A stretch of 64,000 bases of DNA from Escherichia phage kaaroe, in the sequence record MN850574.1, one strand, 5' to 3'. The first letter of the stretch is position 1. Each line of letters opens with the position of its first letter. Under the pieces are notes generated by a model. That model worked only from the letters and a program-made list of their open reading frames with translations. It was not told where the DNA came from and did no database searches. Positions 14,310 through 58,696 of the stretch are shown piece by piece. Made by a program: the position numbers and the translations under genes.

Positions 14310-14338
14310 TTGACAACCATAAACGACTATAGCATAAT
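14310..14338 (+). promoter_or_regulatory. early promoter TTGACA-17-CATAAT
   Basis: -35 at 14310-14315, -10 at 14333-14338, conserved leader CATCGAAACGAAACAC, RBS AGGAGAATCAAAAATG. Confidence 0.6.
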
Positions 14339-14376
14339 GCACACATCGAAACGAAACACACTTAGGAGAATCAAAA

Positions 14377-14754
14377 ATGATGATGATGTTTAAAGATAAA
14401 TTCGAATGTCACTACACCCGTAACTTTGACTTAGTATCCCGCTACTACATTCATAAAGAAACTGGCACGCAAGTAGTTCTTGAATCTCACAGCGAAGTAG
14501 GATTCGATTCAACAAAAGTAGCAATTAGTGCTCGCTTCTGGGATAACGGCAAATTTGCTTATATCGCTTGGAACGACGACGAAAATGTAATTACAGTAGC
14601 TTTCGGTGATGACTACTACACTAAAAAGACTTTCGATAGCAAGCCATCAAATGAATACCTGAAAGCGTATGTGCAGCACATGTTCCAACGTGTTCTGACC
14701 GGAATGGAAATCAATGTCATGAAAGACATTGTAGACGAAGTAAAATATTCTTAA
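14377..14754 (+). CDS. hypothetical early protein (125 aa)
   Basis: ORF directly behind promoter with strong RBS. Confidence 0.6.
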   Translation: MMMMFKDKFECHYTRNFDLVSRYYIHKETGTQVVLESHSEVGFDSTKVAISARFWDNGKFAYIAWNDDENVITVAFGDDYYTKKTFDSKPSNEYLKAYVQHMFQRVLTGMEINVMKDIVDEVKYS

Positions 14755-14760
14755 AAATAG

Positions 14761-14789
14761 TTGACAACATGAAACGGGGGTAGTAAGAT
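14761..14789 (+). promoter_or_regulatory. early promoter with embedded inverted repeat (PeSL-like)
   Basis: TTGACA 14761-14766, -10 TAAGAT 14784-14789; IR GGGGGTAGTAAGATACCCC spanning the spacer and -10. Confidence 0.6.
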
Positions 14790-14819
14790 ACCCCACAAAC
14801 AAACGAAAGGAGAATCAAA

Positions 14820-14978
14820 ATGAAATTCATCGGTAAAACTTTTATGTTCGTAGCTGGTACTCTGTTTACTGCAACTCTGTTAGCTGGTGGCTTAGATATC
14901 TTTACTGCCTTTGAAACTTTCGGGTATACTGTAGCATCGGGTGCTCTCTTCGGATTGGGTTTAGCGATTAGCAAATAA
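14820..14978 (+). CDS. small membrane protein (52 aa)
   Basis: ATG preceded by AAAGGAGAATCAAA; hydrophobic; below ORF-track length cutoff. Confidence 0.5.
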   Translation: MKFIGKTFMFVAGTLFTATLLAGGLDIFTAFETFGYTVASGALFGLGLAISK

Positions 14979-14987
14979 GGTGATAAT

Positions 14988-16100: not shown

Positions 16101-16248
16101 TAGTGAACTAAAGACAGCGCGGTTAGAATGATTTGGACGTCACCTAGCCGCATTTATTGCGGCGTATGGGCGATCCGGTACGCTAAAGCATTAACTTGCT
16201 AGGCCGCTAGCAGGTTGGAGACAAGGAAGATTCGCTACCTTCCCTATA
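16101..16248 (+). ncRNA. candidate small structured RNA (unclassified)
   Basis: No ORF; three hairpins (16147-16163, 16197-16212, 16225-16243) between a late promoter box and a UUCG-loop terminator. Confidence 0.25.
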
Positions 16249-16277
16249 AGCCACTCTTCGGAGTGGCTTTTTTATTG
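16249..16277 (+). terminator. intrinsic terminator (UUCG tetraloop)
   Basis: agccactc-ttcg-gagtggct hairpin followed by TTTTTTATT. Confidence 0.7.
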
Positions 16278-16301
16278 CCTAAAATTTTTTTAAAAAAGTT
16301 G

Positions 16302-16330
16302 TTGACACCAGATCCGGCCTATAGCATAAT
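16302..16330 (+). promoter_or_regulatory. early promoter TTGACA-17-CATAAT (PeSL-like)
   Basis: -35 16302-16307, -10 16325-16330; downstream leader ACACCCATCGAAACGAAACAC. Confidence 0.65.
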
Positions 16331-16376
16331 ACACCCATCGAAACGAAACACACTTTCTTAAACGGAGAATCAAATT

Positions 16377-16562: not shown

Positions 16563-16570
16563 TAAAAGTG

Positions 16571-16599
16571 TTGACAGGGGAGGATAACTCCCCTACAAT
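16571..16599 (+). promoter_or_regulatory. early promoter with embedded inverted repeat (PeSL-like)
   Basis: TTGACA 16571-16576, -10 TACAAT 16594-16599, IR GGGGAGG-ATAA-CTCCCC in spacer. Confidence 0.65.
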
Positions 16600-16628
16600 A
16601 CAACCATCAACGAAACGGGAGAATCAAA

Positions 16629-17263: not shown

Positions 17264-17292
17264 TTGACACGCGATAGGGTGTATAGCATAAT
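17264..17292 (+). promoter_or_regulatory. early promoter TTGACA-17-CATAAT with IR GGGTGTAT-AGCATA-ATACACCC
   Basis: -35 17264-17269, -10 17287-17292; perfect 8-bp inverted repeat overlapping -10. Confidence 0.65.
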
Positions 17293-17334
17293 ACACCCAT
17301 CGAAACGAAACACGAACTACTAAGGAGTATCAAA

Positions 17335-26995: not shown

Positions 26996-27229
26996 TGTTA
27001 GTCACCGTGGGATGCATACCAGAAGTAAAAGAATACTAGCATTAACACAACTATTTGGCTTCCTCATACTTTCGCGTGTTCAATTACTGCCGAATCGGAA
27101 GACCCGTCTAAGACGAGGAAGGGTTATCATTGGAAAGGGATGGTGAATTGGTTACTATGTTTAACTAGTTTAGCAAAGGTCGATTCAAACACTACTATAC
27201 AAATGGACGTGAATAAAATATAATCAAAA

Positions 27230-27258
27230 GCCATCCGAAAGGGTGGCTTTTTCGTTTT
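27230..27258 (+). terminator. intrinsic terminator (GAAA tetraloop, conserved family)
   Basis: gccatcc-gaaa-gggtggc hairpin then TTTTTCGTTTTT. Confidence 0.7.
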
Positions 27259-27264
27259 TAGGTG

Positions 27265-27293
27265 TTGACAACCGGAATAGGGTATATCATAAT
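27265..27293 (+). promoter_or_regulatory. early promoter TTGACA-17-CATAAT
   Basis: -35 27265-27270, -10 27288-27293, leader GCACACATCGACAAC. Confidence 0.65.
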
Positions 27294-27322
27294 GCACACA
27301 TCGACAACAAAGGAGAATCAAA

Positions 27323-28506: not shown

Positions 28507-28535
28507 TTGACAGCGATCCGGTGTTATTGCATAAT
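28507..28535 (+). promoter_or_regulatory. early promoter TTGACA-17-CATAAT (PeSL-like)
   Basis: -35 28507-28512, -10 28530-28535, leader ACACCCATCGAAACGAGATACAC. Confidence 0.65.
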
Positions 28536-28576
28536 ACACCCATCGAAACGAGATACACTTTCTAGGAGAATCAAAA

Positions 28577-28798
28577 ATGGCAACTGTTAAAATTATCAAA
28601 TCTTCCGCTGGTTTCGGTTTCATGCGTGGCGCTAAGTACCCGATGATTATTGAAAACGTTGCCATCGAAGATGGTATGGCTAAAGTAACCAGCCGTCAAT
28701 TGTTCGAAGCGGGTGTTAAAACTGCTGAATCATGGGCGCTTCGCTATCCTAACAAAACATGGTCTTTCTTCCTGGATGGTGAAGCAGAGGTCATCTAA
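28577..28798 (+). CDS. hypothetical abundant early protein (73 aa), KIEIID-family relative
   Basis: VKIIKSSAGFGFMRGAKYPMIIENV resembles 30924/31140 paralogs; biased codon usage. Confidence 0.6.
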   Translation: MATVKIIKSSAGFGFMRGAKYPMIIENVAIEDGMAKVTSRQLFEAGVKTAESWALRYPNKTWSFFLDGEAEVI

Positions 28799-28816
28799 GT
28801 AATATTATCAATCAAT

Positions 28817-28840
28817 GCCCCTTAATTGGGGCTTTTCTTG
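28817..28840 (+). terminator. intrinsic terminator
   Basis: gcccc-ttaatt-ggggc hairpin then TTTTCTTG. Confidence 0.55.
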
Positions 28841-28852
28841 TGAGGAAATTTT

Positions 28853-29638
28853 ATGGCAATATCTTCTGGATGGGTAGGATCATCTGCTGTGTCCGAGACT
28901 GGTCAACGGTGGATGAGCGCCGCAATGCAAGCTGTACGCTTAGGTCGTCCGGCGTATATGTCGGCAATGGTCGGACGCTCTAAAGAGATTCATTATAGCA
29001 TTGGTGCTAGTAACTCTTACAATAAAGACACTCTTATTAACTGGATGAAAGCACAAGGATCTACTCCGGTAGTAATTACTATCACGGGTAATATTGTTTC
29101 CCAATCTACTGGCGTTCCTTGTCTTGATTTCCCTAGCTCACTGACAAACGAATATGTAACACTCATTATTAACTCTGGTGTTCATGTATTAGGTCGTGGA
29201 GGAAATGGCGGAAGTAACTCTGCTGGTGGAGCAGGAGGAAATGCAATAAATAACGGAATTGGAACTCGTTTAAGAATAAACAATAATGGTATTATTGGTG
29301 GTGGCGGTGGTGGCGGTGCTGGTGCTAGATACAATCCTTTCCCTCAAATGGATATGAAATTTGGCGGCGGTGGAGGCCGTCCATTTGGTGCTGCGGGTGC
29401 GGCAGGAGGCGGCGCAGCGGCAGCATCTGCTGGTACAATTTCTGCCCCAGGTAAAGGCACTGTTTCTGGGGTTCATTATGGAGGAGATGGTGGAGATTTG
29501 GGAGCTGCTGGCAAATCTTCATATATTAAAGGTGGTACTGGTGGAACTGTTCACTCGGGTGGTGCTGCGGGTAAAGCTGTTACTGGTAATGCCCCTCGCT
29601 GGGATAAAGTAGGCACGATCTACGGTGCTCGCGTGTAA
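28853..29638 (+). CDS. glycine-rich protein resembling gp38-type tail-fibre adhesin
   Basis: 261 aa; N-terminus GSSAVSETGQRWMS and GRGGNGGSNSAGGAGG plus poly-Gly tracts resemble remembered T2-type gp38. Confidence 0.5.
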   Translation: MAISSGWVGSSAVSETGQRWMSAAMQAVRLGRPAYMSAMVGRSKEIHYSIGASNSYNKDTLINWMKAQGSTPVVITITGNIVSQSTGVPCLDFPSSLTNEYVTLIINSGVHVLGRGGNGGSNSAGGAGGNAINNGIGTRLRINNNGIIGGGGGGGAGARYNPFPQMDMKFGGGGGRPFGAAGAAGGGAAAASAGTISAPGKGTVSGVHYGGDGGDLGAAGKSSYIKGGTGGTVHSGGAAGKAVTGNAPRWDKVGTIYGARV

Positions 29639-29645
29639 TTTTATG

Positions 29646-29677
29646 GGCTATCCTTCGGGGTAGCCTTTTTTGTTTTT
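29646..29677 (+). terminator. intrinsic terminator (UUCG tetraloop)
   Basis: ggctatcc-ttcg-gggtagcc hairpin then TTTTTTGTTTTT. Confidence 0.7.
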
Positions 29678-29682
29678 GGGTG

Positions 29683-29710
29683 TTGACAAAGATAATCACA
29701 ATGCTATAAT
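29683..29710 (+). promoter_or_regulatory. early promoter TTGACA-16-TATAAT
   Basis: -35 29683-29688, -10 29705-29710. Confidence 0.65.
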
Positions 29711-29739
29711 GCACGCATACCAACTAAGGAGAATCAAAG

Positions 29740-30030
29740 ATGACCACTGAACAATTAATCAAGCATATCCGAAACATCATCTGGGATCTGTCTGGTGATA
29801 AAGAGGAACAAGCTGAACGCATTTTGGCTAAACTCTATAAGCGCCGTGACCGTGGATTATCAGCAAAGAAAGTAGAAACTTTCAAAGAGTTATCTTTCAT
29901 CGAAGCTAAAAAGGATGGATTAATTTATCAGTTGACAGATGGTTATTGGTGCTATGATAATACTCGCTATGACACCGCGACCGATGCATTAAAAGCATGT
30001 AATGACCATCTTCGCAAAACTACAATTTGA
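29740..30030 (+). CDS. hypothetical protein (96 aa)
   Basis: ORF behind promoter, AAGGAGAATCAAAG RBS. Confidence 0.55.
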   Translation: MTTEQLIKHIRNIIWDLSGDKEEQAERILAKLYKRRDRGLSAKKVETFKELSFIEAKKDGLIYQLTDGYWCYDNTRYDTATDALKACNDHLRKTTI

Positions 30031-30040
30031 GGATTATATT

Positions 30041-30238
30041 ATGAAGGTTAAAACATTGGCTGATATGGATGAGATCGAGACTCAAGTACATGCGGCGCTA
30101 GTCGGTTATGAGTTCGGGCGATTCCTTAATAAGTTCCATGATTATAAATGCTTAAATTGTGGTGCTCATAACGTAATTGGTGCTTGCTGTATTAATCCTG
30201 TTATAGTACCATATAAAAGAAATGAAACAGAAGAGTGA
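30041..30238 (+). CDS. small Cys-rich protein (65 aa)
   Basis: ATG with GAGGATTATATTATG RBS; CLNCGAHNVIGACC. Confidence 0.5.
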   Translation: MKVKTLADMDEIETQVHAALVGYEFGRFLNKFHDYKCLNCGAHNVIGACCINPVIVPYKRNETEE

Positions 30239-30248
30239 GGAATATAGA

Positions 30249-30683
30249 ATGAAAAAGTTGATGGCGACCTTTCATGATATGCGAGATCTACCAGGTTTAG
30301 CACATGTCGATTTTCCTGTTACTATGGAAGTGTCGGAATATGACGGTTATCATGATATTCTGTTTATTAAAAACACTGAGTTTATCCGCTTAGGCGCTAA
30401 ACCTGCTGTACTATACCCAGAAGGAAACCGGACAGCGGTCAGAAAAACAAATTCTGTTAAATTGGCATTTAGTTCAGATGTTGGCTTGGAACCCGCTTTC
30501 GGATATACTCCGGTCGAGATCACAAAATCGAATACTTCTTTCGTGAAAGTTGGAGAGAAAACGCATATTTCAACTATGCCGAACGGTGCACAATATCTAT
30601 GGTCCGATTTCTGCCAGCGTTATGAGCGTTTATCATGGGCTACCCGCTTATGGTGTGTTGAGTATAAGGAGATCACAAAATGA
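30249..30683 (+). CDS. hypothetical protein (144 aa)
   Basis: ATG at 30249 with GAGGAATATAGA RBS (track ORF begins 30222). Confidence 0.5.
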   Translation: MKKLMATFHDMRDLPGLAHVDFPVTMEVSEYDGYHDILFIKNTEFIRLGAKPAVLYPEGNRTAVRKTNSVKLAFSSDVGLEPAFGYTPVEITKSNTSFVKVGEKTHISTMPNGAQYLWSDFCQRYERLSWATRLWCVEYKEITK

Positions 30684-30934
30684 TCACCGGATATATTCCA
30701 TATTCAACGACAAAACACATTATCGGATTCGAAGACATAGAAAAGTCTTGCTTTCCTCTCAAGGTTGAAGTAGACTTTATTACAGCGAACGGATGGGCTT
30801 ACGTCACTGTTTCAGAAATGAAGCGCGTAGGGTGGGAAAACTGCATACACCTACCGCATCTTATCCTAGATGTTCGCGCTGGTGAAATTGATATTGCTGG
30901 AAAGATCTATGGAGACAATGTAAATGAAAATTGA
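30680..30934 (+). CDS. hypothetical protein (84 aa)
   Basis: ORF overlapping upstream stop. Confidence 0.5.
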   Translation: MITGYIPYSTTKHIIGFEDIEKSCFPLKVEVDFITANGWAYVTVSEMKRVGWENCIHLPHLILDVRAGEIDIAGKIYGDNVNEN

Positions 30935-31121
30935 AATTATTGATGACGGTGGATTTTCTTTCATGAATGGCGTTAAACTTCCTATCATCGTGGAAGGTCG
31001 TCGTTATGGGCTTGATTATCTTGTAGAAACGCAGGAACTACAAAAAGCTGGCGTACCAATTAAAGGTTATTTTCCTGAATATGAATGGTGTTTTCGTGCA
31101 AATGAAGCCTGGGCGGTATAA
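30924..31121 (+). CDS. KIEIID-family small protein, paralog A
   Basis: MKIEIIDDGGFSFMNGVKLPIIVEG...YEWCF. Confidence 0.5.
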   Translation: MKIEIIDDGGFSFMNGVKLPIIVEGRRYGLDYLVETQELQKAGVPIKGYFPEYEWCFRANEAWAV

Positions 31122-31139
31122 CTAATTGAGGATTATATT

Positions 31140-31397
31140 ATGAAGATTGAAATTATTGACCGTGCTGGGTATACTTTCATGGAAAAAGTTAAACTTCCTA
31201 TCATTGTTGAAGGTCGCCCATTATGTCAAGGATTCATGATAAAGACCAGAGAACTACGAAATGCGGGTGTTCCTGTTGAATCATGTTTCAGTGATGATTA
31301 TGAATGGTGTTTCAGTGGTTTACGTGCACATAAAGTAAAAGAAGCACGAAAAGCATCATGGTTTGCTAGCTTTAATAACTGGTTGAGGAAACTGTGA
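31140..31397 (+). CDS. KIEIID-family small protein, paralog B
   Basis: MKIEIIDRAGYTFMEKVKLPIIVEG...YEWCF; tandem with 30924. Confidence 0.55.
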   Translation: MKIEIIDRAGYTFMEKVKLPIIVEGRPLCQGFMIKTRELRNAGVPVESCFSDDYEWCFSGLRAHKVKEARKASWFASFNNWLRKL

Positions 31398-31735
31398 TGT
31401 GTGAAATGAAAAAGTATATGATTCTAAGTGATTCAGGATACACCTTCTTACAAGGTATTGATAGTGACTCGCGTCCTATTGTATATGGAAAAGAACATCC
31501 GACCATTCCTGAGATCATTCTTGTTACGACAACATCACTTCGTAGAGTGTCAGAAAGTCCATACCTACAAAACGTAAAGCAGGACCGAGAATGGGCTTTC
31601 GAGTTAGGTAAAGACCTTGTTGAATGGGTAAACTGTGAAGACAAGAACCAACGAAATCATGAAGGGAAGATTTCACGAATTGTACTGAGAGGAAAACTTG
31701 ATGAAATCAAAAACAGGATTCTACAATCAATGTAA
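31397..31735 (+). CDS. hypothetical protein (112 aa)
   Basis: ATG overlapping upstream stop (TGATG). Confidence 0.5.
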   Translation: MCEMKKYMILSDSGYTFLQGIDSDSRPIVYGKEHPTIPEIILVTTTSLRRVSESPYLQNVKQDREWAFELGKDLVEWVNCEDKNQRNHEGKISRIVLRGKLDEIKNRILQSM

Positions 31736-31955
31736 CAGGGTATTCATTGTCCTGCTGGATTCGGAAAACTATCCAGAACTCTCTAAAACGCGTTTTCCGT
31801 GCGTTGTTGAAGCACGCAAGGCATATGCACCAGATAAACAGTTTATAGTGTTAGCGAGCGAAATAGAGCGGTTAGGGGCGATTCCTAAACATGATGAATA
31901 TGTGTTTTGTAAGGCGTTCTCTGTGCCTCATTTTGGTGTAGAGTTAATTCACTAA
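31701..31955 (+). CDS. hypothetical protein (84 aa)
   Basis: ATG at 31701, overlaps upstream 3' end. Confidence 0.5.
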   Translation: MKSKTGFYNQCNRVFIVLLDSENYPELSKTRFPCVVEARKAYAPDKQFIVLASEIERLGAIPKHDEYVFCKAFSVPHFGVELIH

Positions 31956-31972
31956 AATCATAAAAAAAGTTG

Positions 31973-32001
31973 TTGACAGGGGATCGGTGATCCCCTATAC
32001 T
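31973..32001 (+). promoter_or_regulatory. early promoter with embedded inverted repeat (PeSL-like)
   Basis: TTGACA 31973-31978, -10 TATACT 31996-32001, IR GGGGATC-GGT-GATCCCC. Confidence 0.65.
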
Positions 32002-32043
32002 ACACACATCAAAACGAAACACACTTTCTTAAGGAGAATCAAA

Positions 32044-32322: not shown

Positions 32323-32332
32323 GGAGGACAAT

Positions 32333-35870: not shown

Positions 35871-35873
35871 TAG

Positions 35874-40578: not shown

Positions 40579-41118
40579 ATGATGATGTTTTGTGTACTGA
40601 ACAAAGAAGTTAAACTTCGTAAACTGGAAATTGGCGATGGTGTTGTTGTTAAAATGCACGCTAGCACATTGACTAGTTTTAATTTAAAGGAAAGTTTTTT
40701 TATTAGAGGAACGGTGGTTAATATCTGCTGGAGTAAAGGCGAAGGAATCCGTAGCTTTTGCGTAATTGACGATGATAATAACCTGTATGTGATTCGCTAT
40801 CATAATAATTCTGTATTGGTCTATACCGACAATTCACGAGAATTGTATACTCTTGAATTTGTTAAGCGTACTGATTGCGATCGATTTGTTCGTGCTTATG
40901 AAGAAGATGGCTGTTTTGCGACTGAAACAGAAACAAATGAATATGTTCCTATGGAAGTAGGAGCAGAAATTAAACACAAGATCACGGATCGTATTTTTAA
41001 GGTTGTTGCGGTTGCTCATACTCAATTTGTAGCGCAAGCGCCGGATGAAGAATTTATTATCTACAATATTGGTAATGCAAGTTCTCATTTTCATAATGTA
41101 CTATATCGCGACCTTTGA
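40579..41118 (+). CDS. hypothetical protein (179 aa)
   Basis: ORF behind promoter. Confidence 0.55.
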   Translation: MMMFCVLNKEVKLRKLEIGDGVVVKMHASTLTSFNLKESFFIRGTVVNICWSKGEGIRSFCVIDDDNNLYVIRYHNNSVLVYTDNSRELYTLEFVKRTDCDRFVRAYEEDGCFATETETNEYVPMEVGAEIKHKITDRIFKVVAVAHTQFVAQAPDEEFIIYNIGNASSHFHNVLYRDL

Positions 41119-41135
41119 TAATGTGTGAGGTGAAT

Positions 41136-41663
41136 ATGAAATCATTAAACCGTAAGCGTAAAGCACAACGACACAAAGAACGAGCTAAAAAGATTGCTAT
41201 TGAACTGGTTGAGCGTGAGGATAGCTATTTGTCTACGGGTCGTTTGTATACATTCCATGCATTGATTGATGGTAAGCCAGTGTTGCATAATCATGATTGC
41301 TTAGCACTGTTTCACGAGATCGAACCAATCCATCGTGAATGGGATGACAACAAAGCAAAAGGACAATATTTCCTTACTTGTTCGTGTGGTCATGCTGGAT
41401 GTGCTGGATATTGGGAACCTGTTACGATCCGTGAGAAAAATGATACTATTCAATGGGTCGCCCGTACCCGCGATGGTTATGATAAAGGTGCTGATGGTAC
41501 TGGCGATAACGTAGTTTACTTTAATCGTGATTGGTATTATATGGCGCGATGTATGATCCTGTTTTATCTTGACTCGATGCCGTATGAATATTTCAGTTTC
41601 CAGAATGGGACCGAACTGACAGGGAAGGAATGGTCTGAATACATTCGAAAAAATTTAAAATAA
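41136..41663 (+). CDS. hypothetical protein (175 aa)
   Basis: ATG at 41136 with GAGGTG RBS (track ORF begins 41115). Confidence 0.5.
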   Translation: MKSLNRKRKAQRHKERAKKIAIELVEREDSYLSTGRLYTFHALIDGKPVLHNHDCLALFHEIEPIHREWDDNKAKGQYFLTCSCGHAGCAGYWEPVTIREKNDTIQWVARTRDGYDKGADGTGDNVVYFNRDWYYMARCMILFYLDSMPYEYFSFQNGTELTGKEWSEYIRKNLK

Positions 41664-41667
41664 ATGC

Positions 41668-41696
41668 TTGACGGGGATCGCGAGATCCCCTATACT
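41668..41696 (+). promoter_or_regulatory. early promoter with embedded inverted repeat (PeSL-like, -35 TTGACG)
   Basis: TTGACG 41668-41673, -10 TATACT 41691-41696, IR GGGGATCGCGAGATCCCC. Confidence 0.6.
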
Positions 41697-41738
41697 ATAT
41701 TCATCAAGACGAGATACAACTTTACAGGAGAATCAAAT

Positions 41739-41891
41739 ATGTGGACTTTACTGATTTGGGAAACTGAAAACGCACAAGTAGAAATCCGTGAATACGAATA
41801 CCTAAGCCCAGCTTATCTATTAGCATCTCGCGGTGGTTACTATAAAGCGCAGATTGTAAACGAGTTCGGGGTAATTGAATATGAGTTCTGA
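41739..41891 (+). CDS. small protein (50 aa)
   Basis: ATG with AGGAGAATCAAAT RBS behind promoter. Confidence 0.4.
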   Translation: MWTLLIWETENAQVEIREYEYLSPAYLLASRGGYYKAQIVNEFGVIEYEF

Positions 41892-42384
41892 TACATACGG
41901 CAAACTACGCTATGCCGATATTAAAGATTGTGATATGGTTAACGGTGAGGGAGTGAGAGTCTCCCTTTACGTTACCGGATGTTCACACGCATGTGATGGT
42001 TGCTTTAATGCTAGCCTACTCAATCCTAAGAACGGGGAACCATTCACCGATGATACAATGGGATTGATTCTGGATCTGCTTAGACCTGATTTTATTCAGG
42101 GGCTAACATTCTTAGGTGGCGATCCACTGTATAAACGCAATTTAAAGGGTGTACAGCGGATCATCGATGAAGTAAAATCATGGATGCCAAATAAAGATAT
42201 TTGGCTATGGTCCGGTTATACCCTTGACCAATTGAATGATGAGCAAAGAAAAATTGTAGAATCAGTTGACATGTTCATCGATGGGCGTTATATTAAAGAT
42301 ATGCCAACGAAGAAGCCGTGGCGGGGATCTGACAATCAAGTACAATACAAGATTGTTAATAGTATTCCAGTGAAAATTATTTGA
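41881..42384 (+). CDS. nrdG: anaerobic ribonucleotide reductase activating enzyme NrdG (radical SAM)
   Basis: CSHACDGC (CxxxCxxC) radical-SAM cluster motif; similar to T4 NrdG. Confidence 0.85.
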   Translation: MSSDTYGKLRYADIKDCDMVNGEGVRVSLYVTGCSHACDGCFNASLLNPKNGEPFTDDTMGLILDLLRPDFIQGLTFLGGDPLYKRNLKGVQRIIDEVKSWMPNKDIWLWSGYTLDQLNDEQRKIVESVDMFIDGRYIKDMPTKKPWRGSDNQVQYKIVNSIPVKII

Positions 42385-47978: not shown

Positions 47979-48000
47979 TGGCTTTATAGGGGAGACTCTG

Positions 48001-48025
48001 AAAGGGGTTTCCCTTTTTATTTTTC
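48001..48025 (+). terminator. intrinsic terminator
   Basis: aaaggg-gttt-cccttt hairpin followed by TTTATTTTT. Confidence 0.5.
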
Positions 48026-48068
48026 TGTGATATAGTGAGAGCATCGAAAACGAAGAGAGGAAGAGACT

Positions 48069-49094
48069 ATGAAAATTTTGCTTTTAGGTGATCTGCATAC
48101 TGGTATCGGTGGCGATGATCCGTGGGTGCATGAGTATATTCTTGATACCATCAAGAAGGCGGTTGAATACTCCAAAGAGCATAATATTAAGACATGGATT
48201 CAAACAGGGGATTGGTTTGATTGCCGAAAAGCAATTACCCATGAAACCATGAAATTTAACCGTACTAAGGTCATCCCATTACTGGAAGAGGCTGGAATTA
48301 CTTGTTATATCACGGTCGGGAACCATGATATGTTTAAACGAAACAAGATCCAGCCTAACGCACCGCGTGAAGTGTTAAGCCAGTATGATTGCATTAAGGT
48401 TATCGATAAACCGGAAACAGTTACCTTTGATGGTGTATCATTTGATCTGTTCCCGTGGTTTTGTGATGACAATAAATCAGAGATTTTAGAGTTTATTCAA
48501 AACTCATTCAGCGAATATTGTGTAGGCCATTGGGAATTGTCCGGTTACTATTTCTATAAAGGGCTAAAATCCGAAGGTTATAGCGCGGACTTCCTCAAGA
48601 AATACCGTGAAGTGTTTTCCGGTCATTTTCATACTATCAGCGATGGCGGTAATGTAACGTATATCGGTACACCATACACACTAACGGCGGGTGACGAAAA
48701 CGATCCGCGTGGGTTTTGGGTATTCGATACCGATACACACAAAAAAGAGTTTATCCAGAATGACAAAACTTATCATGTGCGTATCACTTACCCGTCAGAT
48801 GATAAAATCGATGTAGAACGCTTTAAGGGGCTTAGTGTGCGTCTTATTGCAACGGTTGCTGATAATGGGTTAACTAAGTTAGAAAGCGCGTTAGAGGCCG
48901 TTGTACACAAGCTAAAAGTGGTCCATAAACTGGAGAGTAGCGCATCACAGGAAACAGGTGTTATTGAAGTTAAAAGCACTATTCAGATGGTATATGAATA
49001 TCTGGAAGAACAAAACCTAGAACCGGAAGAACTTGCGGCGGTCAAGCGTATTTCTGATGAACTTTTAGCCGAGGTAAATAGCGCAAAAAGTTAG
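48069..49094 (+). CDS. 47: recombination endonuclease subunit gp47 (Mre11-like)
   Basis: 341 aa; phosphoesterase motifs GDLH, GDWFD, GNHD, GHWE, GHFH; collinear with T4 gp47. Confidence 0.9.
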   Translation: MKILLLGDLHTGIGGDDPWVHEYILDTIKKAVEYSKEHNIKTWIQTGDWFDCRKAITHETMKFNRTKVIPLLEEAGITCYITVGNHDMFKRNKIQPNAPREVLSQYDCIKVIDKPETVTFDGVSFDLFPWFCDDNKSEILEFIQNSFSEYCVGHWELSGYYFYKGLKSEGYSADFLKKYREVFSGHFHTISDGGNVTYIGTPYTLTAGDENDPRGFWVFDTDTHKKEFIQNDKTYHVRITYPSDDKIDVERFKGLSVRLIATVADNGLTKLESALEAVVHKLKVVHKLESSASQETGVIEVKSTIQMVYEYLEEQNLEPEELAAVKRISDELLAEVNSAKS

Positions 49095-49123
49095 TTGACG
49101 CGTGGAGAAATCCCCGTTATACT
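49095..49123 (+). promoter_or_regulatory. sigma70-like promoter TTGACG-17-TATACT with IR
   Basis: TTGACG 49095-49100, TATACT 49118-49123, IR GGAGAAATCCCC; -35 abuts gp47 stop. Confidence 0.55.
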
Positions 49124-49148
49124 CTCTAAAAATTGATTGGAGGTTGTT

Positions 49149-50521: not shown

Positions 50522-52184
50522 AACCTTGCGCTATCAAAATATAATGAGCGTGGGTGCTGAACCTGTTGAGATTCAGCTAGACGGATTCAAAAAGACACTA
50601 ATCACTGGTGTTAACGGTGCTGGTAAATCAACAATGATCGAGGCGCTTTGCTTTGTGTTGTTCGGTAAACCGTTTCGTAGTATCAAGAAAGGCCAATTGA
50701 TTAACAGCGTCAACAAAAAGAAACTGTTAGTCGAAGTCTGGTTTGAACTGGACGGAAAAGAGTTTTATATCAAACGTGGTCAAAAACCGGAAGTCTTCGA
50801 AGTGCATCGCGACGGTCAAAAGATCGACGAGAGCGCAAGCACCAAAGACTTTCAGGAATATTTTGAAGGTATCATAGGAATGAACCTAGCCAGCTTTAAA
50901 CAGATCGTTGTTTTAGGCACTGCTGGTTATGTTCCGTTTATGAGTCTTCCGGCAGCGGGTCGCCGTAAACTGGTCGAGGATTTGCTTGATATTGCTACGC
51001 TAGGCGAAATGGATAAACTGAATAAAGCGTATGTGCGCGAGATTACCCAGAATATCCAAATGCAGGAAATGAAAGCTAATCACGTTCAGCAACAAATCAA
51101 CACTCATAAAAAGTACATAGAAGACGCTAGCAAGGCGAGTGCCGAGAATCTACAGCGTTTGCAGAATATGTACGAGAAAGAAGTCGAATCAGCTAAAGCG
51201 TTTAAAGCCGAAGAAACACGCTTGACCGATGAGCTATTGGCTGTTGTTATGCCGGAAGATCCTAGCGCGGCATTGGCTAAAATTAATACGGCTATCGCAC
51301 AGATTGGTGCACAGATCCAGAACTTTGACCGTGTTATCCATATGCACGAGAAAGGCGGGATCTGTCCTACGTGCACACAACCGATCATTCAGGGTAATGA
51401 TCAGGCTGTACGCGAACAAAAAGCACAAGCCGAACATAAACTGTCTCTTATTGACGAGAAACGCGTAGAATACGCAGAGAAGGCCAATTCTTTCCAGACA
51501 GCACAAACTAAGGTCTTGGAAATTAAACGCGCTATAGAGTCACAGAGAGCGAATTTAACGGCATCTGTAGGTCGGGCTAAACAGATCCAGAAAGCAATTC
51601 AGGAATTACAAAAAGAAAGGGTTGACAATTCCGAAGAACTTGCTAAACTGGAACACGAACTGGTAGAGATTACTAATGAAAAATCAAAGCTAGTTCTTGA
51701 AAAATATCACCGTGGATTTGTAACAGAAATGTTGAAGGATTCCGGTGTTAAGGCGTCTATCGTCAAGAAATATATTCCATATTTCAATGATCGGATTGCG
51801 TATTATCTTGATATCATGGAAGCGGATTATATCTTTACGCTAGATGAAGAGTTTAACGAAACAATCAAATCACGGGGGCGGGAATCGTTTTCGTATACAT
51901 CATTCAGTCAAGGCGAAAAAGCACGTATTGACCTTGCGATGCTCTTTACATGGCGTGATGTTGCTGGTAAAGTATCTGGTACTAATATTTCTTTGTTGGT
52001 ACTCGACGAAATTTATGATGGGGCTACGGACGTTCAGGGCGTAAAAGCACTTGATTCCATCATTGACAAGTTAGATGATAACGTGTATATTATCAGCCAT
52101 CGTGACCATAACCCTGATGATTTTAGCCGTCATCTCAAGATGGTTAAACGTGGGCGATTCACTGAAATGAATGTTAACATTTGA
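50502..52184 (+). CDS. 46: recombination endonuclease subunit gp46 (Rad50/SbcC-like ATPase)
   Basis: Walker A GVNGAGKST, central coiled coil with CPTC zinc hook, C-terminal LLVLDE Walker B; collinear with T4 gp46. Confidence 0.9.
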   Translation: MAKLNFKTLRYQNIMSVGAEPVEIQLDGFKKTLITGVNGAGKSTMIEALCFVLFGKPFRSIKKGQLINSVNKKKLLVEVWFELDGKEFYIKRGQKPEVFEVHRDGQKIDESASTKDFQEYFEGIIGMNLASFKQIVVLGTAGYVPFMSLPAAGRRKLVEDLLDIATLGEMDKLNKAYVREITQNIQMQEMKANHVQQQINTHKKYIEDASKASAENLQRLQNMYEKEVESAKAFKAEETRLTDELLAVVMPEDPSAALAKINTAIAQIGAQIQNFDRVIHMHEKGGICPTCTQPIIQGNDQAVREQKAQAEHKLSLIDEKRVEYAEKANSFQTAQTKVLEIKRAIESQRANLTASVGRAKQIQKAIQELQKERVDNSEELAKLEHELVEITNEKSKLVLEKYHRGFVTEMLKDSGVKASIVKKYIPYFNDRIAYYLDIMEADYIFTLDEEFNETIKSRGRESFSYTSFSQGEKARIDLAMLFTWRDVAGKVSGTNISLLVLDEIYDGATDVQGVKALDSIIDKLDDNVYIISHRDHNPDDFSRHLKMVKRGRFTEMNVNI

Positions 52185-52401
52185 CAGAGTAACGCAGCCG
52201 GAGTTAGAATTGTATACATTAATCAATCTATATTCCGGTGAAGAATATGTAGTTAGTATGGGGGATATGAAAAACAGCATATACAGCGATGAAGACATAA
52301 CAAAAATGTTGTCTTGTCGTCATCATGAGTTTATGCTGGTCCCCAACTTTGATAAACTTGATTACCCTGATGCTGGGGTTGCAACAAACTTTAGAACGTG
52401 A
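52171..52401 (+). CDS. hypothetical protein (76 aa)
   Basis: ORF starting inside gp46 3' end. Confidence 0.4.
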   Translation: MLTFDRVTQPELELYTLINLYSGEEYVVSMGDMKNSIYSDEDITKMLSCRHHEFMLVPNFDKLDYPDAGVATNFRT

Positions 52402-53221: not shown

Positions 53222-53908
53222 ATGAAACTGACTAAAGAAACCATTGCTACCCTGAAAAACTTTTCCGCTATTAACCCAGGTATCATCCTGAAAAAAGGAA
53301 ACGTCCTGATCACCAAAAACATGACAAACGTTGTATATGGTGAAGCGACTCTGAATCAAGAACTGGAACACGAAATTGGGATCTATGATCTTAACTCTTT
53401 CTTGGGTATTCTGAATCTGGTAGGCGATGAAGCAGATATTACGGTTGACGACCGCACTGGTAACATTCGTGTGTCTAATGATCGTCTGAAAATTAATTAC
53501 CCTGGTGCTAGTGCTGCTGCTATCGTATCACCGAAAGGCCGAGTTACTCCACCTGCAAGCGATGTAGATTACGAACTGAGCAACGACGATCTGAAACAGC
53601 TTATGAAAATGAGCAATCAGCTTAAAGTGGATCGCCTTGAATTTCTTCCGATTGATGGTCGTCTGATGATCAAAGGTTGGGAAGAGATTGACAAAAATAA
53701 TCCTAATGAGATGTTTTGTCTTGATATGGGCGAATATACCGGAACCGCAGACTTCCATTTCTTTATTCGTAAAGATAACATGAAACTGGTTGCTACTGAC
53801 TTCGGCGATTACAAACTGAGCTTCACTCGCCGTAAGGCTGTATGGCTGGCAAGTGAAACCGTATCTTATATGATCGCGTGTGACCTTGACTCCAGCTACA
53901 CCGACTAA
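53222..53908 (+). CDS. 45: sliding clamp gp45
   Basis: 228 aa; MKLTKETIATLKNF..., IYDLNSFLGILNLV match remembered T4 gp45. Confidence 0.9.
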   Translation: MKLTKETIATLKNFSAINPGIILKKGNVLITKNMTNVVYGEATLNQELEHEIGIYDLNSFLGILNLVGDEADITVDDRTGNIRVSNDRLKINYPGASAAAIVSPKGRVTPPASDVDYELSNDDLKQLMKMSNQLKVDRLEFLPIDGRLMIKGWEEIDKNNPNEMFCLDMGEYTGTADFHFFIRKDNMKLVATDFGDYKLSFTRRKAVWLASETVSYMIACDLDSSYTD

Positions 53909-53914
53909 TATAAT
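53886..53914 (+). promoter_or_regulatory. sigma70-like promoter TTGACT-17-TATAAT for gene 44 (within 3' end of gene 45)
   Basis: TTGACT 53886-53891, TATAAT 53909-53914. Confidence 0.55.
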
Positions 53915-53920
53915 GTTTGT

Positions 53921-53941
53921 GGGGAGTATAAAATACTCCCC
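53921..53941 (+). promoter_or_regulatory. perfect 9-bp stem-loop in gene 44 leader
   Basis: GGGGAGTAT-AAA-ATACTCCCC immediately downstream of -10. Confidence 0.5.
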
Positions 53942-53974
53942 GTTTTAATGATGTAATTTGTGAGAGGTGATTAT

Positions 53975-55527: not shown

Positions 55528-55528
55528 A

Positions 55529-55891
55529 ATGATTGAAATTAATTTGATTAGTCCTGAAAACTTCCTTAAAATTAAGGAAACTTTAACCCGCTGCGGCATT
55601 GCCAACAATCGAGACAAGACGCTGTATCAGTCTTGTCATATTCTCCAGAAGAAAGGGCGCTATTACATCGTTCATTTCAAGGAGTTGTTGAAATTAGATG
55701 GTCGTAGTGTTAAAATGACGTGGGAAGATGAATTACGCCGTAATAACATTGCAAAACTTCTGGCGCAGTGGAATCTGTGTACCCTGATTGATAGTGATTT
55801 TGAAACTACCGAAGTTAATAATTTCCGTGTATTGTCTTTCAAACAGAAAGAAGAGTGGACGCTGATCGAGAAATATCAGATCGGGCGATAA
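55529..55891 (+). CDS. regA: translational repressor RegA
   Basis: 120 aa; KIKETLTRCGIANNRDKTLYQSCHILQKKGRYYIVHFKE nearly identical to remembered T4 RegA. Confidence 0.85.
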   Translation: MIEINLISPENFLKIKETLTRCGIANNRDKTLYQSCHILQKKGRYYIVHFKELLKLDGRSVKMTWEDELRRNNIAKLLAQWNLCTLIDSDFETTEVNNFRVLSFKQKEEWTLIEKYQIGR

Positions 55892-55912
55892 GATACTGAT
55901 GGGATAGGGGTA

Positions 55913-55941
55913 TTGACAAACTAAGTCGATTCCCCTATAAT
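55913..55941 (+). promoter_or_regulatory. sigma70-like promoter TTGACA-17-TATAAT for gene 43
   Basis: -35 55913-55918, -10 55936-55941. Confidence 0.6.
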
Positions 55942-55973
55942 GAGTGTCTTTCGTAAGTGAAGGAGTTTATATT

Positions 55974-58652
55974 ATGTATTTTCTGTCATGTGAGCGAGTA
56001 GGTGATAAGATCTACGAGCGTTATATTGATGATGCTGGACAAGAACAAGAGCGTTACGTTGAATATACGCCAACTTTATTTCATCATGCCGCGCCTGGTA
56101 TGGTTACGAATTATAAAGATATCTATGGCAAGCCTTGCATTGCTAAAAAATTCCCCTCTATGAACGAGGCCAACAAATGGCGTAAAAAGATGGGAGAAAT
56201 GGGGCAAGAGGCGCTAGGGATGGATGATTTTATCATCTCCTATCTGTCTGATACGTATAAAGGCGAGATTCGATATGACCGAAATAAAATCCGTGTAGCA
56301 TGGGTTGATATCGAGGTCACTGCCCCAGAATTTCCTAAACCAGAAGAAGCGAAATATCCTATCGATGCAATTACGCATTATGATTCCGTACATGATCGTT
56401 TCTTTGTATTTGATTTGAAAGGAAAAAACGGTGAAATCTGGGAATCTAGCAAGTCTATTCTTCGACCTGATATTGTAGAGCGCGTTGTTTATAACGTCTA
56501 TGACACAGAAGATGAATTGCTGTTAGAATACATCCGATTCTTTGAGGAAAACCGACCCGTTGGTTTCACTGGCTGGAACACAGAAACATTCGATATTCCA
56601 TATATCATTAAACGTATCAGTAATAAGTTCGGAAGTAGAACCGCTAACCGTCTAAGCCCGTGCGGTAAGATTAAATCCCGAATCTCACAGGATGATTTTG
56701 GCAACGAGCGTGAAGCATTTACGATCATGGGGATCGAAAGCCTTGATTATATTGACCTGTACAAGAAATTTAGCTTTACGACTCAACCAACATATGCATT
56801 AGATTATGTTGCTGAATATGAGACAGGAATCGGTAAGGTTGATTATGATGGTCCGTTAAAGAAATTGCGTGATGACAACCATCAACTTTACATCGATTAT
56901 AACATCGGCGACGTTGATCGTGTTCTGGCGATTGATAAAAAGCGTGGATTTATCGATCTGGTGTATAGTCTATGTTTCTATGCAAAGATTAAATTTAACC
57001 ATGTTTATAACCCGATGAAAGTGTGGGATGCTATTATCTTCGGATCTCTGAAAGCTGAGGGTAAAGTAGTACCGGAAAATAAGATACAGCCTAAGCAGAC
57101 GTATCCAGGCGCATTCGTAAAAGAACCTGTGCCGAATGCTTACCGTTGGATGATGAGCTTTGACTTAACAAGTCTGTACCCATCTATTATTCGACAGGTT
57201 AATATTTCGCCTGAAACAATCGCTGGATCTTTTGATGCTGCACCGATGCACGAGTATATCAATAAAACTGCACCACGTCCGAGTGATGAGTATTCTTGCT
57301 CGCCTAACGGATGGATGTATAGAAAAGATATTCACGGTATCGTACCGATTGAGATTAAAAAGGTATTCGATCAGCGTAAGCAGTACAAAAACATGATGTT
57401 GGCATGTGATCGCAATGCTGAACTCTGTAAAGCGATTCTACACGATGAAAATCATGTTTATGGAGGAACCATTAACTATAGCGTTGAAGTGCGTCACGAC
57501 TTTGATGAAGCGTTTAAATCGATGCTTTCTGAATTAAGTAAAGATGCCTTAGAGAAATTGCTGGAAGAATGTAAAGACGAGTCGATCTTGTGCAATACAA
57601 ACCAGCTTTCTCGTAAAGTTTTGATCAACTCCCTTTATGGTGCGTTGGGGAATCCTAAATTCCGTTTTTATGATCTCCGTAACGCTAGTGCGATCACCTT
57701 GTTTGGTCAGCTTGCAATTCAGTGGATTGAGCGTAAGATTAACGAATACTTAAACGAGCTTTGTGGAACAACCGATTTTGCATATGTTCGTTATTGTGAT
57801 ACTGACTCCGTTTATGTGCTGGTTAACAATGTTGTTGATAAGGTTGGCGGGGAAGACCGTTTCGACGATACCGAAAAACTTGTTGACTTCCTTGATAATT
57901 TCGGTAAACATCGAATGGAACCTATTATCGACAAGGGATATCGCGAGTTATGCGAGTACATGAACAACTATGAGCACTTGATGTTTATGGACCGTGAGGC
58001 AATTGCTGGTCCTCCATTGAAATCTGCGGGTATCGGTGGATTCTGGACTGGTAAAAAGCGTTATGCTCTTAATGTTTGGGATATGGAAGGAACGCGCTTT
58101 GCTGAACCTAAGCTAAAAATCATGGGCTTGGAAACGCAACGTAGCTCCACCCCTAAAGCATGTCAGAAATCACTGAAAGAATGTATTCGCCGTATGTTGC
58201 AGGAAGGTGAAGAGTCATTGCAGGAATACTACGGTATTTTTGAGCAAGAATTTAGAAAACTTGACTATCTTGATGTTGCTGCGGTATCATCTGCAAACAA
58301 CCTACAGAAATACAGCGATTCAAACGGGTATCCGATTAAGGGTTGTCCGTATGCGGTTAAGAGTGTATTGTGTTATAATCGTAATGCTCGAAAATTCGGA
58401 CTAGATCCGATTCGTGAAGGCGAGAAGGTTATGATTGTACCGCTGAAAGATCGAAATCCGTTTGGAGAAATCTGTTTTGGTTGGTTGTCCGGTACTCGTA
58501 TTCCTCCAGAAATTGAATCAGAGGTGTTAAAGTGGTTAGACTGGCCTTTGTTGTTTAATAAGACTTTCGTCAAACCACTGGAGAACATTACCACGGCTGC
58601 AAAGCTGCAATATGAAAAAGTGGCATCTCTTACAGACCTGTTTGACATTTAA
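55974..58652 (+). CDS. 43: DNA polymerase gp43 (family B)
   Basis: ATG at 55974 with AGGAG RBS; exonuclease and polymerase motifs (DIEV, SLYPSII, YGDTDS) collinear with T4 gp43. Confidence 0.95.
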   Translation: MYFLSCERVGDKIYERYIDDAGQEQERYVEYTPTLFHHAAPGMVTNYKDIYGKPCIAKKFPSMNEANKWRKKMGEMGQEALGMDDFIISYLSDTYKGEIRYDRNKIRVAWVDIEVTAPEFPKPEEAKYPIDAITHYDSVHDRFFVFDLKGKNGEIWESSKSILRPDIVERVVYNVYDTEDELLLEYIRFFEENRPVGFTGWNTETFDIPYIIKRISNKFGSRTANRLSPCGKIKSRISQDDFGNEREAFTIMGIESLDYIDLYKKFSFTTQPTYALDYVAEYETGIGKVDYDGPLKKLRDDNHQLYIDYNIGDVDRVLAIDKKRGFIDLVYSLCFYAKIKFNHVYNPMKVWDAIIFGSLKAEGKVVPENKIQPKQTYPGAFVKEPVPNAYRWMMSFDLTSLYPSIIRQVNISPETIAGSFDAAPMHEYINKTAPRPSDEYSCSPNGWMYRKDIHGIVPIEIKKVFDQRKQYKNMMLACDRNAELCKAILHDENHVYGGTINYSVEVRHDFDEAFKSMLSELSKDALEKLLEECKDESILCNTNQLSRKVLINSLYGALGNPKFRFYDLRNASAITLFGQLAIQWIERKINEYLNELCGTTDFAYVRYCDTDSVYVLVNNVVDKVGGEDRFDDTEKLVDFLDNFGKHRMEPIIDKGYRELCEYMNNYEHLMFMDREAIAGPPLKSAGIGGFWTGKKRYALNVWDMEGTRFAEPKLKIMGLETQRSSTPKACQKSLKECIRRMLQEGEESLQEYYGIFEQEFRKLDYLDVAAVSSANNLQKYSDSNGYPIKGCPYAVKSVLCYNRNARKFGLDPIREGEKVMIVPLKDRNPFGEICFGWLSGTRIPPEIESEVLKWLDWPLLFNKTFVKPLENITTAAKLQYEKVASLTDLFDI

Positions 58653-58696
58653 GATAAAGTGTGTATAATGGCGGGTGTTGGGTGACGATACCCGCC
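58642..58696 (+). promoter_or_regulatory. promoter TTGACA-16-TATAAT followed by stem-loop; -35 inside last codons of gene 43
   Basis: TTGACA 58642-58647, TATAAT 58664-58669, hairpin GGCGGGT...ACCCGCC 58670-58696. Confidence 0.5.

Follow-up and report, generated by a model that had tools for sequence, protein, structure and literature searches.

The 64,000-nucleotide (nt) window of Escherichia phage kaaroe analysed in this study (sequence record MN850574.1; all positions are those of this whole stretch) contains a dispersed family of early promoter cassettes in which a sigma70-type promoter is combined with a stem-loop. Judged by sequence, these cassettes are promoter-early stem-loops (PeSLs) of the RB49/phi1-type phages, and because every sequence-level defining feature tested was found, this is membership and not mere resemblance. 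The finding is a rediscovery, as PeSLs were described in 2010 and are publicly annotated in close relatives. Very probably, each cassette joins an early promoter to an element marking where the upstream transcript ends, and the repeats double as portable homology.

Arbiol, Comeau, Kutateladze, Adamia and Krisch (2010, PMC2839356) reported about 51 PeSL motifs in RB49 and 52 in phi1. As defined there, a PeSL has a sigma70 consensus preceded by AT-rich sequence, together with a stem-loop that is often polyG/polyC, and five subclasses were distinguished by the position of the stem-loop, the commonest lying between -35 and -10 or overlapping -10 (PMC2839356). Most sites are located in hyperplastic regions in front of ORFans, and PeSLs also flank gene 43 and precede genes of the nrdD region (PMC2839356). 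Promoter activity, reduced read-through and mini-circles were reported for these sister cassettes by others; the wild-type clone of PeSL206/205 gave about 13,000 Miller units and activity was deduced for PeSL193/192, both of which are outside the window (PMC2839356). Comeau, Arbiol and Krisch (2014, PMC4122927) extended the PeSL idea to other T4-like phages (PST/T4, nt-1/KVP40).

A 12-kb piece of the window (30000-42000), used as query, matched 58 phage records, 57 of them with a coverage of at least 80% and all from Krischvirus-type coliphages, and a 25-kb query led to the same result. Identity of the 12-kb piece was 97.5% to RB49 and 96.4% to phi1, the window being antiparallel to the RB49 record. 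On this sequence evidence the window belongs to a Krischvirus closely related to coliphage RB49. Minus-strand genes (baseplate genes) occupy the window as far as about 10.4 kb and plus-strand genes the remainder, and the sign change of the GC skew coincides with this switch. For comparison, nine related loci were used: RB49, an 'RB49' ENA assembly, LF73P4, GEC-3S, phiS, JK32, phi1 and two IMG/VR contigs, which were the only related loci in IMG/VR, the other relatives being taken from GenBank records. Depending on the site, orthologous cassettes were found in 4-8 of the nine loci. At the orthologues of nearly all cassettes, terminators and promoters with their -35 and -10 are annotated in the GEC-3S record, and the RB49 RefSeq record lists some 'hypothetical early promoters', with gene 43 flanked by them on both sides. 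The genes behind the cassettes are mostly annotated as 'hypothetical protein' in the RB49, phi1 and GEC-3S records. Rfam and tRNA scans of the window gave no match. The relation to PeSLs, which an earlier sequence-only reading of this DNA had proposed, is thus borne out by the identity to RB49 and phi1, the orthologous sites and the agreement of all sequence-level features.

In the region 10401-64000, an exact TTGACA followed after 16 or 17 nt by at least five of the six bases of TATAAT occurred 23 times on the plus strand and never on the minus strand, compared with 0.39 copies expected from first-order Markov simulations. The exact form TTGACA-N16/17-TANAAT was found eight times on the plus and once on the minus strand (0.14 expected), six hexamer pairs were perfect at 12/12 positions, and the bare TTGACA was present 47 times on the plus strand versus 5 times on the minus strand. 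The sequence-only reading had counted at least 20 plus-strand copies, which agrees with these numbers. Its placing of almost all of them directly before small early genes was overstated: 14 of the 23 copies had an intergenic -10, at a distance of 29-47 nt from the start codon downstream, and nine copies were intragenic. With weaker hexamers allowed, there are about 23-24 intergenic cassettes. An nhmmer profile built from 13 copies gave 15 plus-strand matches at E<1e-3 and one on the minus strand. Family, enrichment, strand bias and position are established by these counts.

That the elements arose by chance from promoter-like hexamers and short palindromes of AT-rich phage DNA has a negligible probability. 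A generic promoter/terminator scan does yield many weak matches (75 found versus 56 expected in 20 kb) and is too permissive to inform, but the strong plus-strand matches, hairpin energies beyond all shuffles in nine cassettes and the conservation of the elements at orthologous sites in nine genomes refute this explanation.

The nine intragenic copies are near-consensus sigma70 promoters on the coding strand inside coding sequences (19445, 24137, 35751, 37877, 42266, 44827, 44917, 52063 and 61078), and may be internal early promoters. About 0.4 are expected in the whole region and none is present on the opposite strand. They have no embedded hairpins, with the exception of 44827, where the -35 is enclosed by GGTCGGG...CCCGACC.

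Beyond the hexamers the family shares the consensus aaaaagtTG-TTGACA-N16/17-TATAAT-acacNCAtcgAaa, followed by a short A/C-rich leader and a strong Shine-Dalgarno (SD) sequence. The 25 nt upstream of -35 contain on average 69% A+T, compared with 60% in the window. Leaders and ribosome-binding site (RBS) forms common to several copies had been noticed before; the leader CAYCGAAACGAAACAC was indeed found exactly in three copies, a looser CATCGAAAC-type leader in about nine cassettes, and the RBS form GGAGAATCAA ten times. The second RBS form, the 15-mer GAGGATTATATTATG comprising SD, spacer and start codon, is present eight times on the plus strand (18258, 30029, 31128, 32700, 36209, 36832, 38065 and 60028) and never on the minus strand, and five of these copies are located within operons with no promoter nearby, which makes it a translation-initiation module that several genes share irrespective of the promoter cassettes. 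At 36784, 38019 and 52181 the stop codon of the preceding gene is overlapped by the -35 hexamer, and at 22621, 35874 and 49095 it abuts the hexamer. At 58642, for which such an overlap had been proposed as well as for 36784 and 38019, the -35 is inside the end of the open reading frame (ORF) and the stop codon follows 3 nt further on, in the spacer.

For a folding test, the segment from the spacer through the -10 to 8 nt beyond it was taken from 23 intergenic cassettes and compared with shuffles preserving the -10. An embedded hairpin of -10 to -14 kcal/mol (each p<=0.003) was detected in 10 of the 23 cassettes, 13 being without an embedded repeat, and the mean minimum free energy (MFE) was -6.5 compared with -2.25 in the shuffles. 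In class A (16571, 31973, 41668) the hairpin starts directly after -35 and stops before -10. In class B (14761, 17264, 22621, 32649, 35874, 36784, 38019) the 5' arm falls within the second half of the spacer, a 6-nt loop takes up most of the -10 hexamer, and the 3' arm consists of the last base or bases of -10 plus the discriminator. Six cassettes without an embedded hairpin (14310, 16302, 27265, 29683, 40522 and the weaker 21405) exhibit a hairpin of -12 to -16 kcal/mol just upstream of -35; with 6-7 T in the next 8 nt these are canonical intrinsic terminators, and the T run doubles as AT-rich upstream region. In other layouts the hairpin follows the -10 (53886, 58642) or encloses the promoter (10422, 55913), or the stem is weak or damaged (23467, 28507, 49095). 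In total, hairpins are embedded in ten cassettes, precede the promoter with a T run in six, follow it in two or three and enclose it in three or four; these layouts correspond to the position classes of Arbiol et al. A G/C hairpin with U-tract, the mark of an intrinsic terminator, was found for the upstream hairpins 14273, 16248, 27226, 29645 and 40484 and on the minus strand at about 1160-1188. The members are listed below (dG, folding energy in kcal/mol; p, from the shuffles).

1092-1188, minus strand: cassette; terminator hairpin and T run (about 1160-1188), TTGACA 1149-1144, N17, TATAAT 1126-1121, leader GCTCACATCTAAAC; nhmmer E=5e-11.
10413-10462, plus strand: cassette; TTGATA-N16-TATAAT 10422-10449 inside the hairpin CACCCT...AGGGTG 10413-10457.
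14273-14376, plus strand: cassette; upstream intrinsic terminator 14273-14293 (then 7/8 T), TTGACA-N17-CATAAT 14310-14338, leader CATCGAAACGAAACAC, AGGAGAATCAAA.
14761-14819, plus strand: cassette; TTGACA-N17-TAAGAT, class B hairpin 14777-14794 with -10 in the loop; dG -10.6, p=0.
16248-16376, plus strand: cassette; upstream terminator 16248-16269, TTGACA-N17-CATAAT 16302-16330, CATCGAAACGAAACAC leader.
16568-16628, plus strand: cassette; TTGACA 16571, class A spacer hairpin GGGGAG-GATAA-CTCCCC 16577-16593, TACAAT; dG -12.4, p=0.
17264-17334, plus strand: cassette; TTGACA-N17-CATAAT, class B hairpin GGGTGTAT-AGCATA-ATACACCC 17277-17298; dG -12.1, p=0.
21383-21463, plus strand: weak cassette, missed by the HMM profile; terminator hairpin and T run, then TTGGCT-N17-TATGAT after TGG.
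22621-22680, plus strand: cassette; TTGACA abutting stop TAG, N17, TAATAT, class B hairpin GGGGGTA-GTAATA-TACCCCC 22636-22655; dG -14.0, p=0.
23467-23529, plus strand: cassette; TTGACT-N17-TATTAT with only a weak enclosing inverted repeat; p=0.38.
27226-27322, plus strand: cassette; upstream terminator 27226-27251, TTGACA-N17-CATAAT 27265-27293.
28507-28576, plus strand: cassette; TTGACA-N17-CATAAT, decayed class B hairpin GGTGT...ACACC; dG -5.2, p=0.15.
29645-29739, plus strand: cassette; upstream terminator 29645-29666, TTGACA-N16-TATAAT 29683-29710.
31973-32043, plus strand: cassette; TTGACA, class A spacer hairpin GGGGATC-GGT-GATCCCC 31979-31995, TATACT; dG -11.6, p=0.003.
32649-32711, plus strand: cassette; TTGACA-N17-TATAAT, class B hairpin of 10 bp 32660-32685; dG -12.5, p=0.
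35874-35933, plus strand: cassette; TTGACA-N17-TAAAAT, class B hairpin GGGAGTA-GTAAAA-TACTCCC 35889-35908; dG -13.4, p=0.
36784-36843, plus strand: cassette; TTGACA overlapping stop TGA, N17, TAAGAT, class B hairpin 36799-36818; dG -11.9, p=0.
38019-38076, plus strand: cassette; TTGACA overlapping stop TGA, N16, TATAAT, class B hairpin GGGAGTAT-GCTATA-ATACTCCC 38031-38052; dG -13.3, p=0.
40484-40578, plus strand: cassette; upstream terminator 40484-40505, TTGACA-N16-TATAAT 40522-40549.
41668-41738, plus strand: cassette; TTGACG, class A spacer hairpin GGGGATC-GCGA-GATCCCC 41673-41690, TATACT; dG -10.0, p=0.
47979-48068, plus strand: probable variant member; terminator hairpin and T run, extended -10-like TGATATAGT, CATCGAAAAC leader, before gene 47.
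49095-49148, plus strand: cassette; TTGACG abutting stop TAG, N17, TATACT, spacer hairpin broken by G-to-T.
52181-52239, plus strand: possible weak member; TTGACA overlapping the gene 46 stop TGA, N18, TAGAAT, long-loop inverted repeat.
53886-53974, plus strand: cassette; TTGACT-N17-TATAAT, hairpin after -10 GGGGAGTAT-AAA-ATACTCCCC 53921-53941, then GTTTTAAT; before gene 44.
55904-55973, plus strand: cassette; TTGACA-N17-TATAAT 55913-55941 enclosed by ATAGGGG...CCCCTAT; before gene 43.
58642-58713, plus strand: cassette; TTGACA-N16-TATAAT at the gene 43 end, hairpin GGCGGGT...ACCCGCC 58669-58697 directly after -10; dG -21.4.

Two of these members, the minus-strand cassette (profile match 1100-1174) and the one at 10422, are located outside the stretch 14310-58696 to which the family had been assigned. 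The minus-strand cassette precedes an 85-aa ORF (834-1091) among the baseplate genes. Inverted repeats had been predicted correctly at 35889-35908, 31979-31995 and 17277-17298; two further ones were slightly misplaced, ending at 16593 and not at 16594 in the first case, and lying at 36799-36818 instead of 36795-36814 for the second copy of GGGAGTAGTAAGATACTCCC. The gaps 19023-19083 and 20278-20339 (plus strand) contain the G/C hairpins CGGGTAG...CTACCCG and ACGGGGAGA...TCTCTCCGT with only degenerate -35/-10-like hexamers, and may be decayed cassettes. Next to the cassette at 16302, an ORF-free stretch of 192 nt between two small genes (16101-16292, plus strand) has an MFE of -66.2 kcal/mol (z -3.84; 0/200 shuffles as good) and ends in the intrinsic terminator 16248-16269 with its T run. 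This stretch, possibly a small-RNA gene, carries no RB49 annotation, and above the threshold no Rfam family matched it.

Embedded hairpins (ten cassettes) and upstream terminators (six) never occurred in the same cassette (0 of 23; hypergeometric estimate p ~0.02). Furthermore, the gap between the genes is 54-88 nt in the embedded form and 86-276 nt in the upstream form. Exclusion and gap length together suggest that both forms of hairpin do one job. No significant embedded hairpin was detected at 12 intragenic promoter-like sites, compared with 10 of 23 intergenic ones, with the caveat that coding constraint may contribute to this difference. As the intragenic sites are without hairpins, it is apparently the terminus of the upstream gene, rather than the promoter itself, that the hairpin accompanies.

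Among the nine related loci, variable columns amounted to 6 of 148 in the stems, 2 of 60 in -35 and 0 of 18 in -10, compared with 14 of 54 in the rest of the spacer and 9 of 54 in the loops. The stems are as conserved as the -35 and -10 hexamers, which establishes selection on them. The cassette at 31973 has five loop variants among the relatives, its stem being constant except for the closing pair. Four of the six variable stem pairs keep pairing via G-U (C-G to U-G, U-A to U-G, and the reverse) and the other two are loop-closing pairs. These G-U-preserving changes fit RNA pairing better than DNA pairing.

Alternatively, a dimeric DNA-binding protein of phage or host might recognize the inverted repeats as operators and turn the early promoters off, since an inverted repeat over spacer and -10 has the classical operator geometry. 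We regard this as highly improbable. At least eight stem sequences were found (GGGGAG, GGGGATC, GGGAGTA, GGGGGTA, GGGTGTAT, GCGGTTAT, GGGGAGTAT and GGCGGGT), all of them complementary, and diverse stems with complementarity kept indicate nucleic-acid pairing and not recognition by one protein. Loop lengths and positions vary between cassettes, too, and 13 of the 23 cassettes have no embedded repeat to be bound. Among 20 distinct class B sequences, paralogues and orthologues together, five stem positions showed two to four pair types, at least two of them Watson-Crick, which rules out a single protein recognition sequence. As MAFFT aligned class B by the -10, giving two registers, the pair statistics were taken from loop-anchored sequences instead.

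The repeats may also act as DNA, either by forming cruciforms or single-strand hairpins that tune the promoter or as targets of a recombination protein (e.g. endonuclease VII) starting cassette excision. It has been speculated that a recombination protein binds GGGG...CCCC, and one mini-circle crossover was mapped inside a loop (PMC2839356); moreover, endonuclease VII (gene 49) is encoded beside several cassettes. This explanation is nevertheless unlikely. The position of the hairpin relative to -35 and -10 is not fixed, with five arrangements and two registers within class B, which is a poor fit with a defined polymerase contact. Consensus promoters within genes are without hairpins, ordinary upstream terminators replace the embedded hairpins where space permits, and stem changes via G-T weaken DNA pairing but not RNA pairing. 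Furthermore, the crossover found in phiS (see below) is located in a shared RBS outside any hairpin. Promoter tuning was rejected on these grounds. The suggestion of the sequence-only reading that the hairpin modulates promoter use found no support, and the evidence points to read-through RNA from the upstream gene.

We propose that the near-consensus sigma70 promoter would be usable by unmodified host RNA polymerase straight after infection. Going by the usual sigma70 geometry, the first transcribed base would be the A in a conserved CAT some 7 nt beyond the -10, and a leader of 23-40 nt with a strong RBS would launch the next gene, usually a small one of unknown function. The stem-loop would be interchangeable in position: a long gap would accommodate a T-run terminator upstream of -35, and in a short gap the stem-loop would be packed into spacer, -10 and discriminator; in a few cassettes it would enclose or follow the promoter. 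With the CAT A as start site, the 3' arm of class B ends at about -1, so that only read-through RNA would contain the hairpin and the mRNA of the cassette itself would not. The hairpin would then most likely stop, attenuate or cap the upstream transcript, and an RNA-level role of the embedded hairpins is the most likely one on the sequence evidence. That this role is true termination or attenuation appears to us slightly better than an even guess.

Cassettes sharing 60-100 bp in one orientation and scattered in variable regions would be substrates for homologous recombination, and PeSL-PeSL recombination by the phage system would delete, insert or swap the intervening genes. Mini-circles resulting from PeSL-PeSL exchange were found by inverse PCR, and PeSLs were proposed to mediate gene shuffling (PMC2839356). 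The sequence-only reading had correctly named this proposal, and our comparison provides a direct example. In phiS, a deletion of 28600-29727 fuses the promoter and leader of PeSL 28507, via AGGAGAATCAA, to the ORF behind PeSL 29683. The crossover falls in the shared RBS and removes a 73-aa ORF together with the gp38 adhesin gene; it is one clean PeSL-PeSL crossover. At the same locus, LF73P4 has a different, chimeric PeSL, consisting of the spacer hairpin CGGGGA-GAAA-TCCCCG joined to the 29683 leader. The homology of LF73P4 to the window stops exactly at the ATG after PeSL 31973 (32044), and beyond it only PeSL-sized islands match.

The gp38 adhesin gene (28853-29638) is located between the cassettes 28507 and 29683 and forms the cassette missing at this locus in phiS and LF73P4. 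The protein is 100% identical to that of MIZ2/3/6, W115 and FL37, about 83% to GEC-3S and JK32, and about 90% to gp38 of T-even phages such as RB18 and Shfl2, which makes this adhesin a mosaic across genera. Neither phiS and LF73P4 nor RB49 was among the best 60 rows of a tblastn search with gp38. A further difference was observed at 31093-31140 and its flanks, where the window has about 219 extra bases compared with LF73P4, OZ035808 and JK32 and the alignments on either side share 173 nt of the other genome, suggesting an unequal exchange between the paralogous small ORFs 30924-31121 and 31140-31397, with no cassette involved.

Several points weigh against the interpretation of the cassettes as promoters with an upstream transcript-end element and portable homology. 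In chained alignments of the window with seven relatives we counted 19 distinct indel or replacement events, and a PeSL was present at one or both breakpoints in only six of them, a sample too small for a gene-boundary null. At least seven of the 19 are insertions of homing endonucleases (HNH, AP2-HNH, other) with no PeSL profile match at the junction. Their sites are 7460-7483, 12212, 20238-20262, 21424-21451 (two different inserts), 35075-35077 and 48068-48072; the inserts of 560-780 bp are present in GEC-3S, phiS, JK32, LF73P4, RB49 and OZ035808, absent here, and no other kind of indel is as frequent in the region. PeSL-PeSL exchange is real there and accounts for a minority of indel events. 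A few stems have suffered damage in one genome only, namely those at 49095 and 14761 in this window and at 36784 in L008, and the stem at 28507 is damaged generally. At 49095-49123 a G-to-T change breaks the stem in this phage only, the relatives keeping CGGGGA-GAAA-TCCCCG, and at 14777-14794 one C is missing from the 3' arm in this phage only, the relatives having the full stem. The 20 class B sequences were preselected for six pairs, which makes their 90% pairing circular and only the pair-type diversity informative. The published read-through test comprises a single stem-loop, that of PeSL211/210 (PMC2839356). A literature search for mapped 5' or 3' ends of Krischvirus transcripts found none. 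Finally, of the 8 nt that come after the stem, only 0-4 are T in the ten embedded hairpins, which falls short of the canonical U-tract and makes them poor intrinsic terminators by the usual rules.

It is possible, if rather unlikely, that the embedded hairpins are not terminators but barriers that protect or process the 3' end of read-through RNA. An endonuclease would cut in the A-rich leader or in the downstream GGAG of the RBS, and 3' exonucleases would be kept off the upstream cistron by the hairpin. The contrast between these few T and the 6-7 T after the six upstream hairpins supports such a role, and the G-U-preserving stem changes fit RNA and not DNA pairing. GGAG, the cleavage motif of RegB in T4, was present at -19 to -5 in 15 of 23 cassette-first genes versus 23 of 92 other plus-strand genes (odds ratio 5.6, p=5e-4), and the window encodes a regB homologue at 23021-23443, assigned by position relative to GEC-3S BN201_0095. 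GAGAGGA(T/C), used by a second group of cassettes, does not contain GGAG. As a more specific and rather doubtful proposal, the embedded hairpins might be RNA 3'-end caps coupled to cleavage of the leader or GGAG by RegB or RNase E, so that early cistrons would be uncoupled post-transcriptionally. PeSLs would then be promoter plus mRNA-boundary elements and not promoter plus terminator. RegB cleavage in RB49-type phages is, however, assumed by analogy with T4, and the barrier departs from the termination or attenuation favoured above only after the hairpin has formed. The stem-loop of PeSL211/210 lowered lacZ as much as rrnB T1 (PMC2839356); this speaks for termination, but a drop of the reporter cannot separate termination from RNA instability.

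PeSLs are among the few concrete candidates for the "linker" sequences needed by modular phage evolution, as they bring their own expression signals together with dispersed homology for swapping accessory genes, here including the cassette of the host-range adhesin gp38. Finding them confirmed in one more Krischvirus brings no new principle. The exclusivity with upstream terminators, the hairpin-free intragenic promoters, the lack of a U-tract and the G-U-preserving changes go modestly beyond Arbiol et al. The newer genomes give proportion: PeSL-PeSL exchange takes part in fewer indels than homing endonucleases explain, and the label "terminator" for the embedded hairpins rests on thin evidence.

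The cassettes agree with the PeSLs of RB49 and phi1 in genus, orthologous sites, hexamers, AT-rich upstream region and a G...C stem-loop in varied positions. They are likewise located between the upstream stop codon and the downstream SD/ATG, mostly before ORFans in hyperplastic regions, and some of them at indel junctions. Nothing essential differs; the point differences of this isolate are the broken stem at 49095 and the shortened one at 14761. The composite motifs of PST/T4 and nt-1/KVP40 and the internal-protein loci of T-even phages also combine an early promoter and a stem-loop between variable genes and are implicated in module exchange. The T-even elements have T4-type early promoters and weaker AT-rich stems without polyG/polyC (PMC2839356). 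They are analogues and not homologues of the cassettes described here.

Lambdoid morons, which Hendrix et al. are said to have described in 2000 as a single accessory gene with its own promoter and terminator, resemble the cassettes in that an accessory gene carries both signals. In contrast to PeSLs, the regulatory sequences of morons do not form a family of repeats, nor are they known to mediate mobility, and morons are often antisense to their neighbours, whereas the cassettes here are co-oriented. Integron attC cassettes are small promoter-linked units bounded by imperfect inverted repeats, too, and circular intermediates have been reported in both systems (the mini-circles in the case of PeSLs). 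Integrons, however, need a dedicated integrase acting on folded attC, and the phiS crossover is an ordinary homologous exchange in a shared RBS; we know of no integrase for PeSL cassettes. Canonical Rho-independent terminators, finally, are matched by six or seven upstream hairpins (e.g. 14273-14293 and 27226-27251) with their 6-7 T in 8 nt, unlike the ten embedded hairpins, which are without a U-tract.

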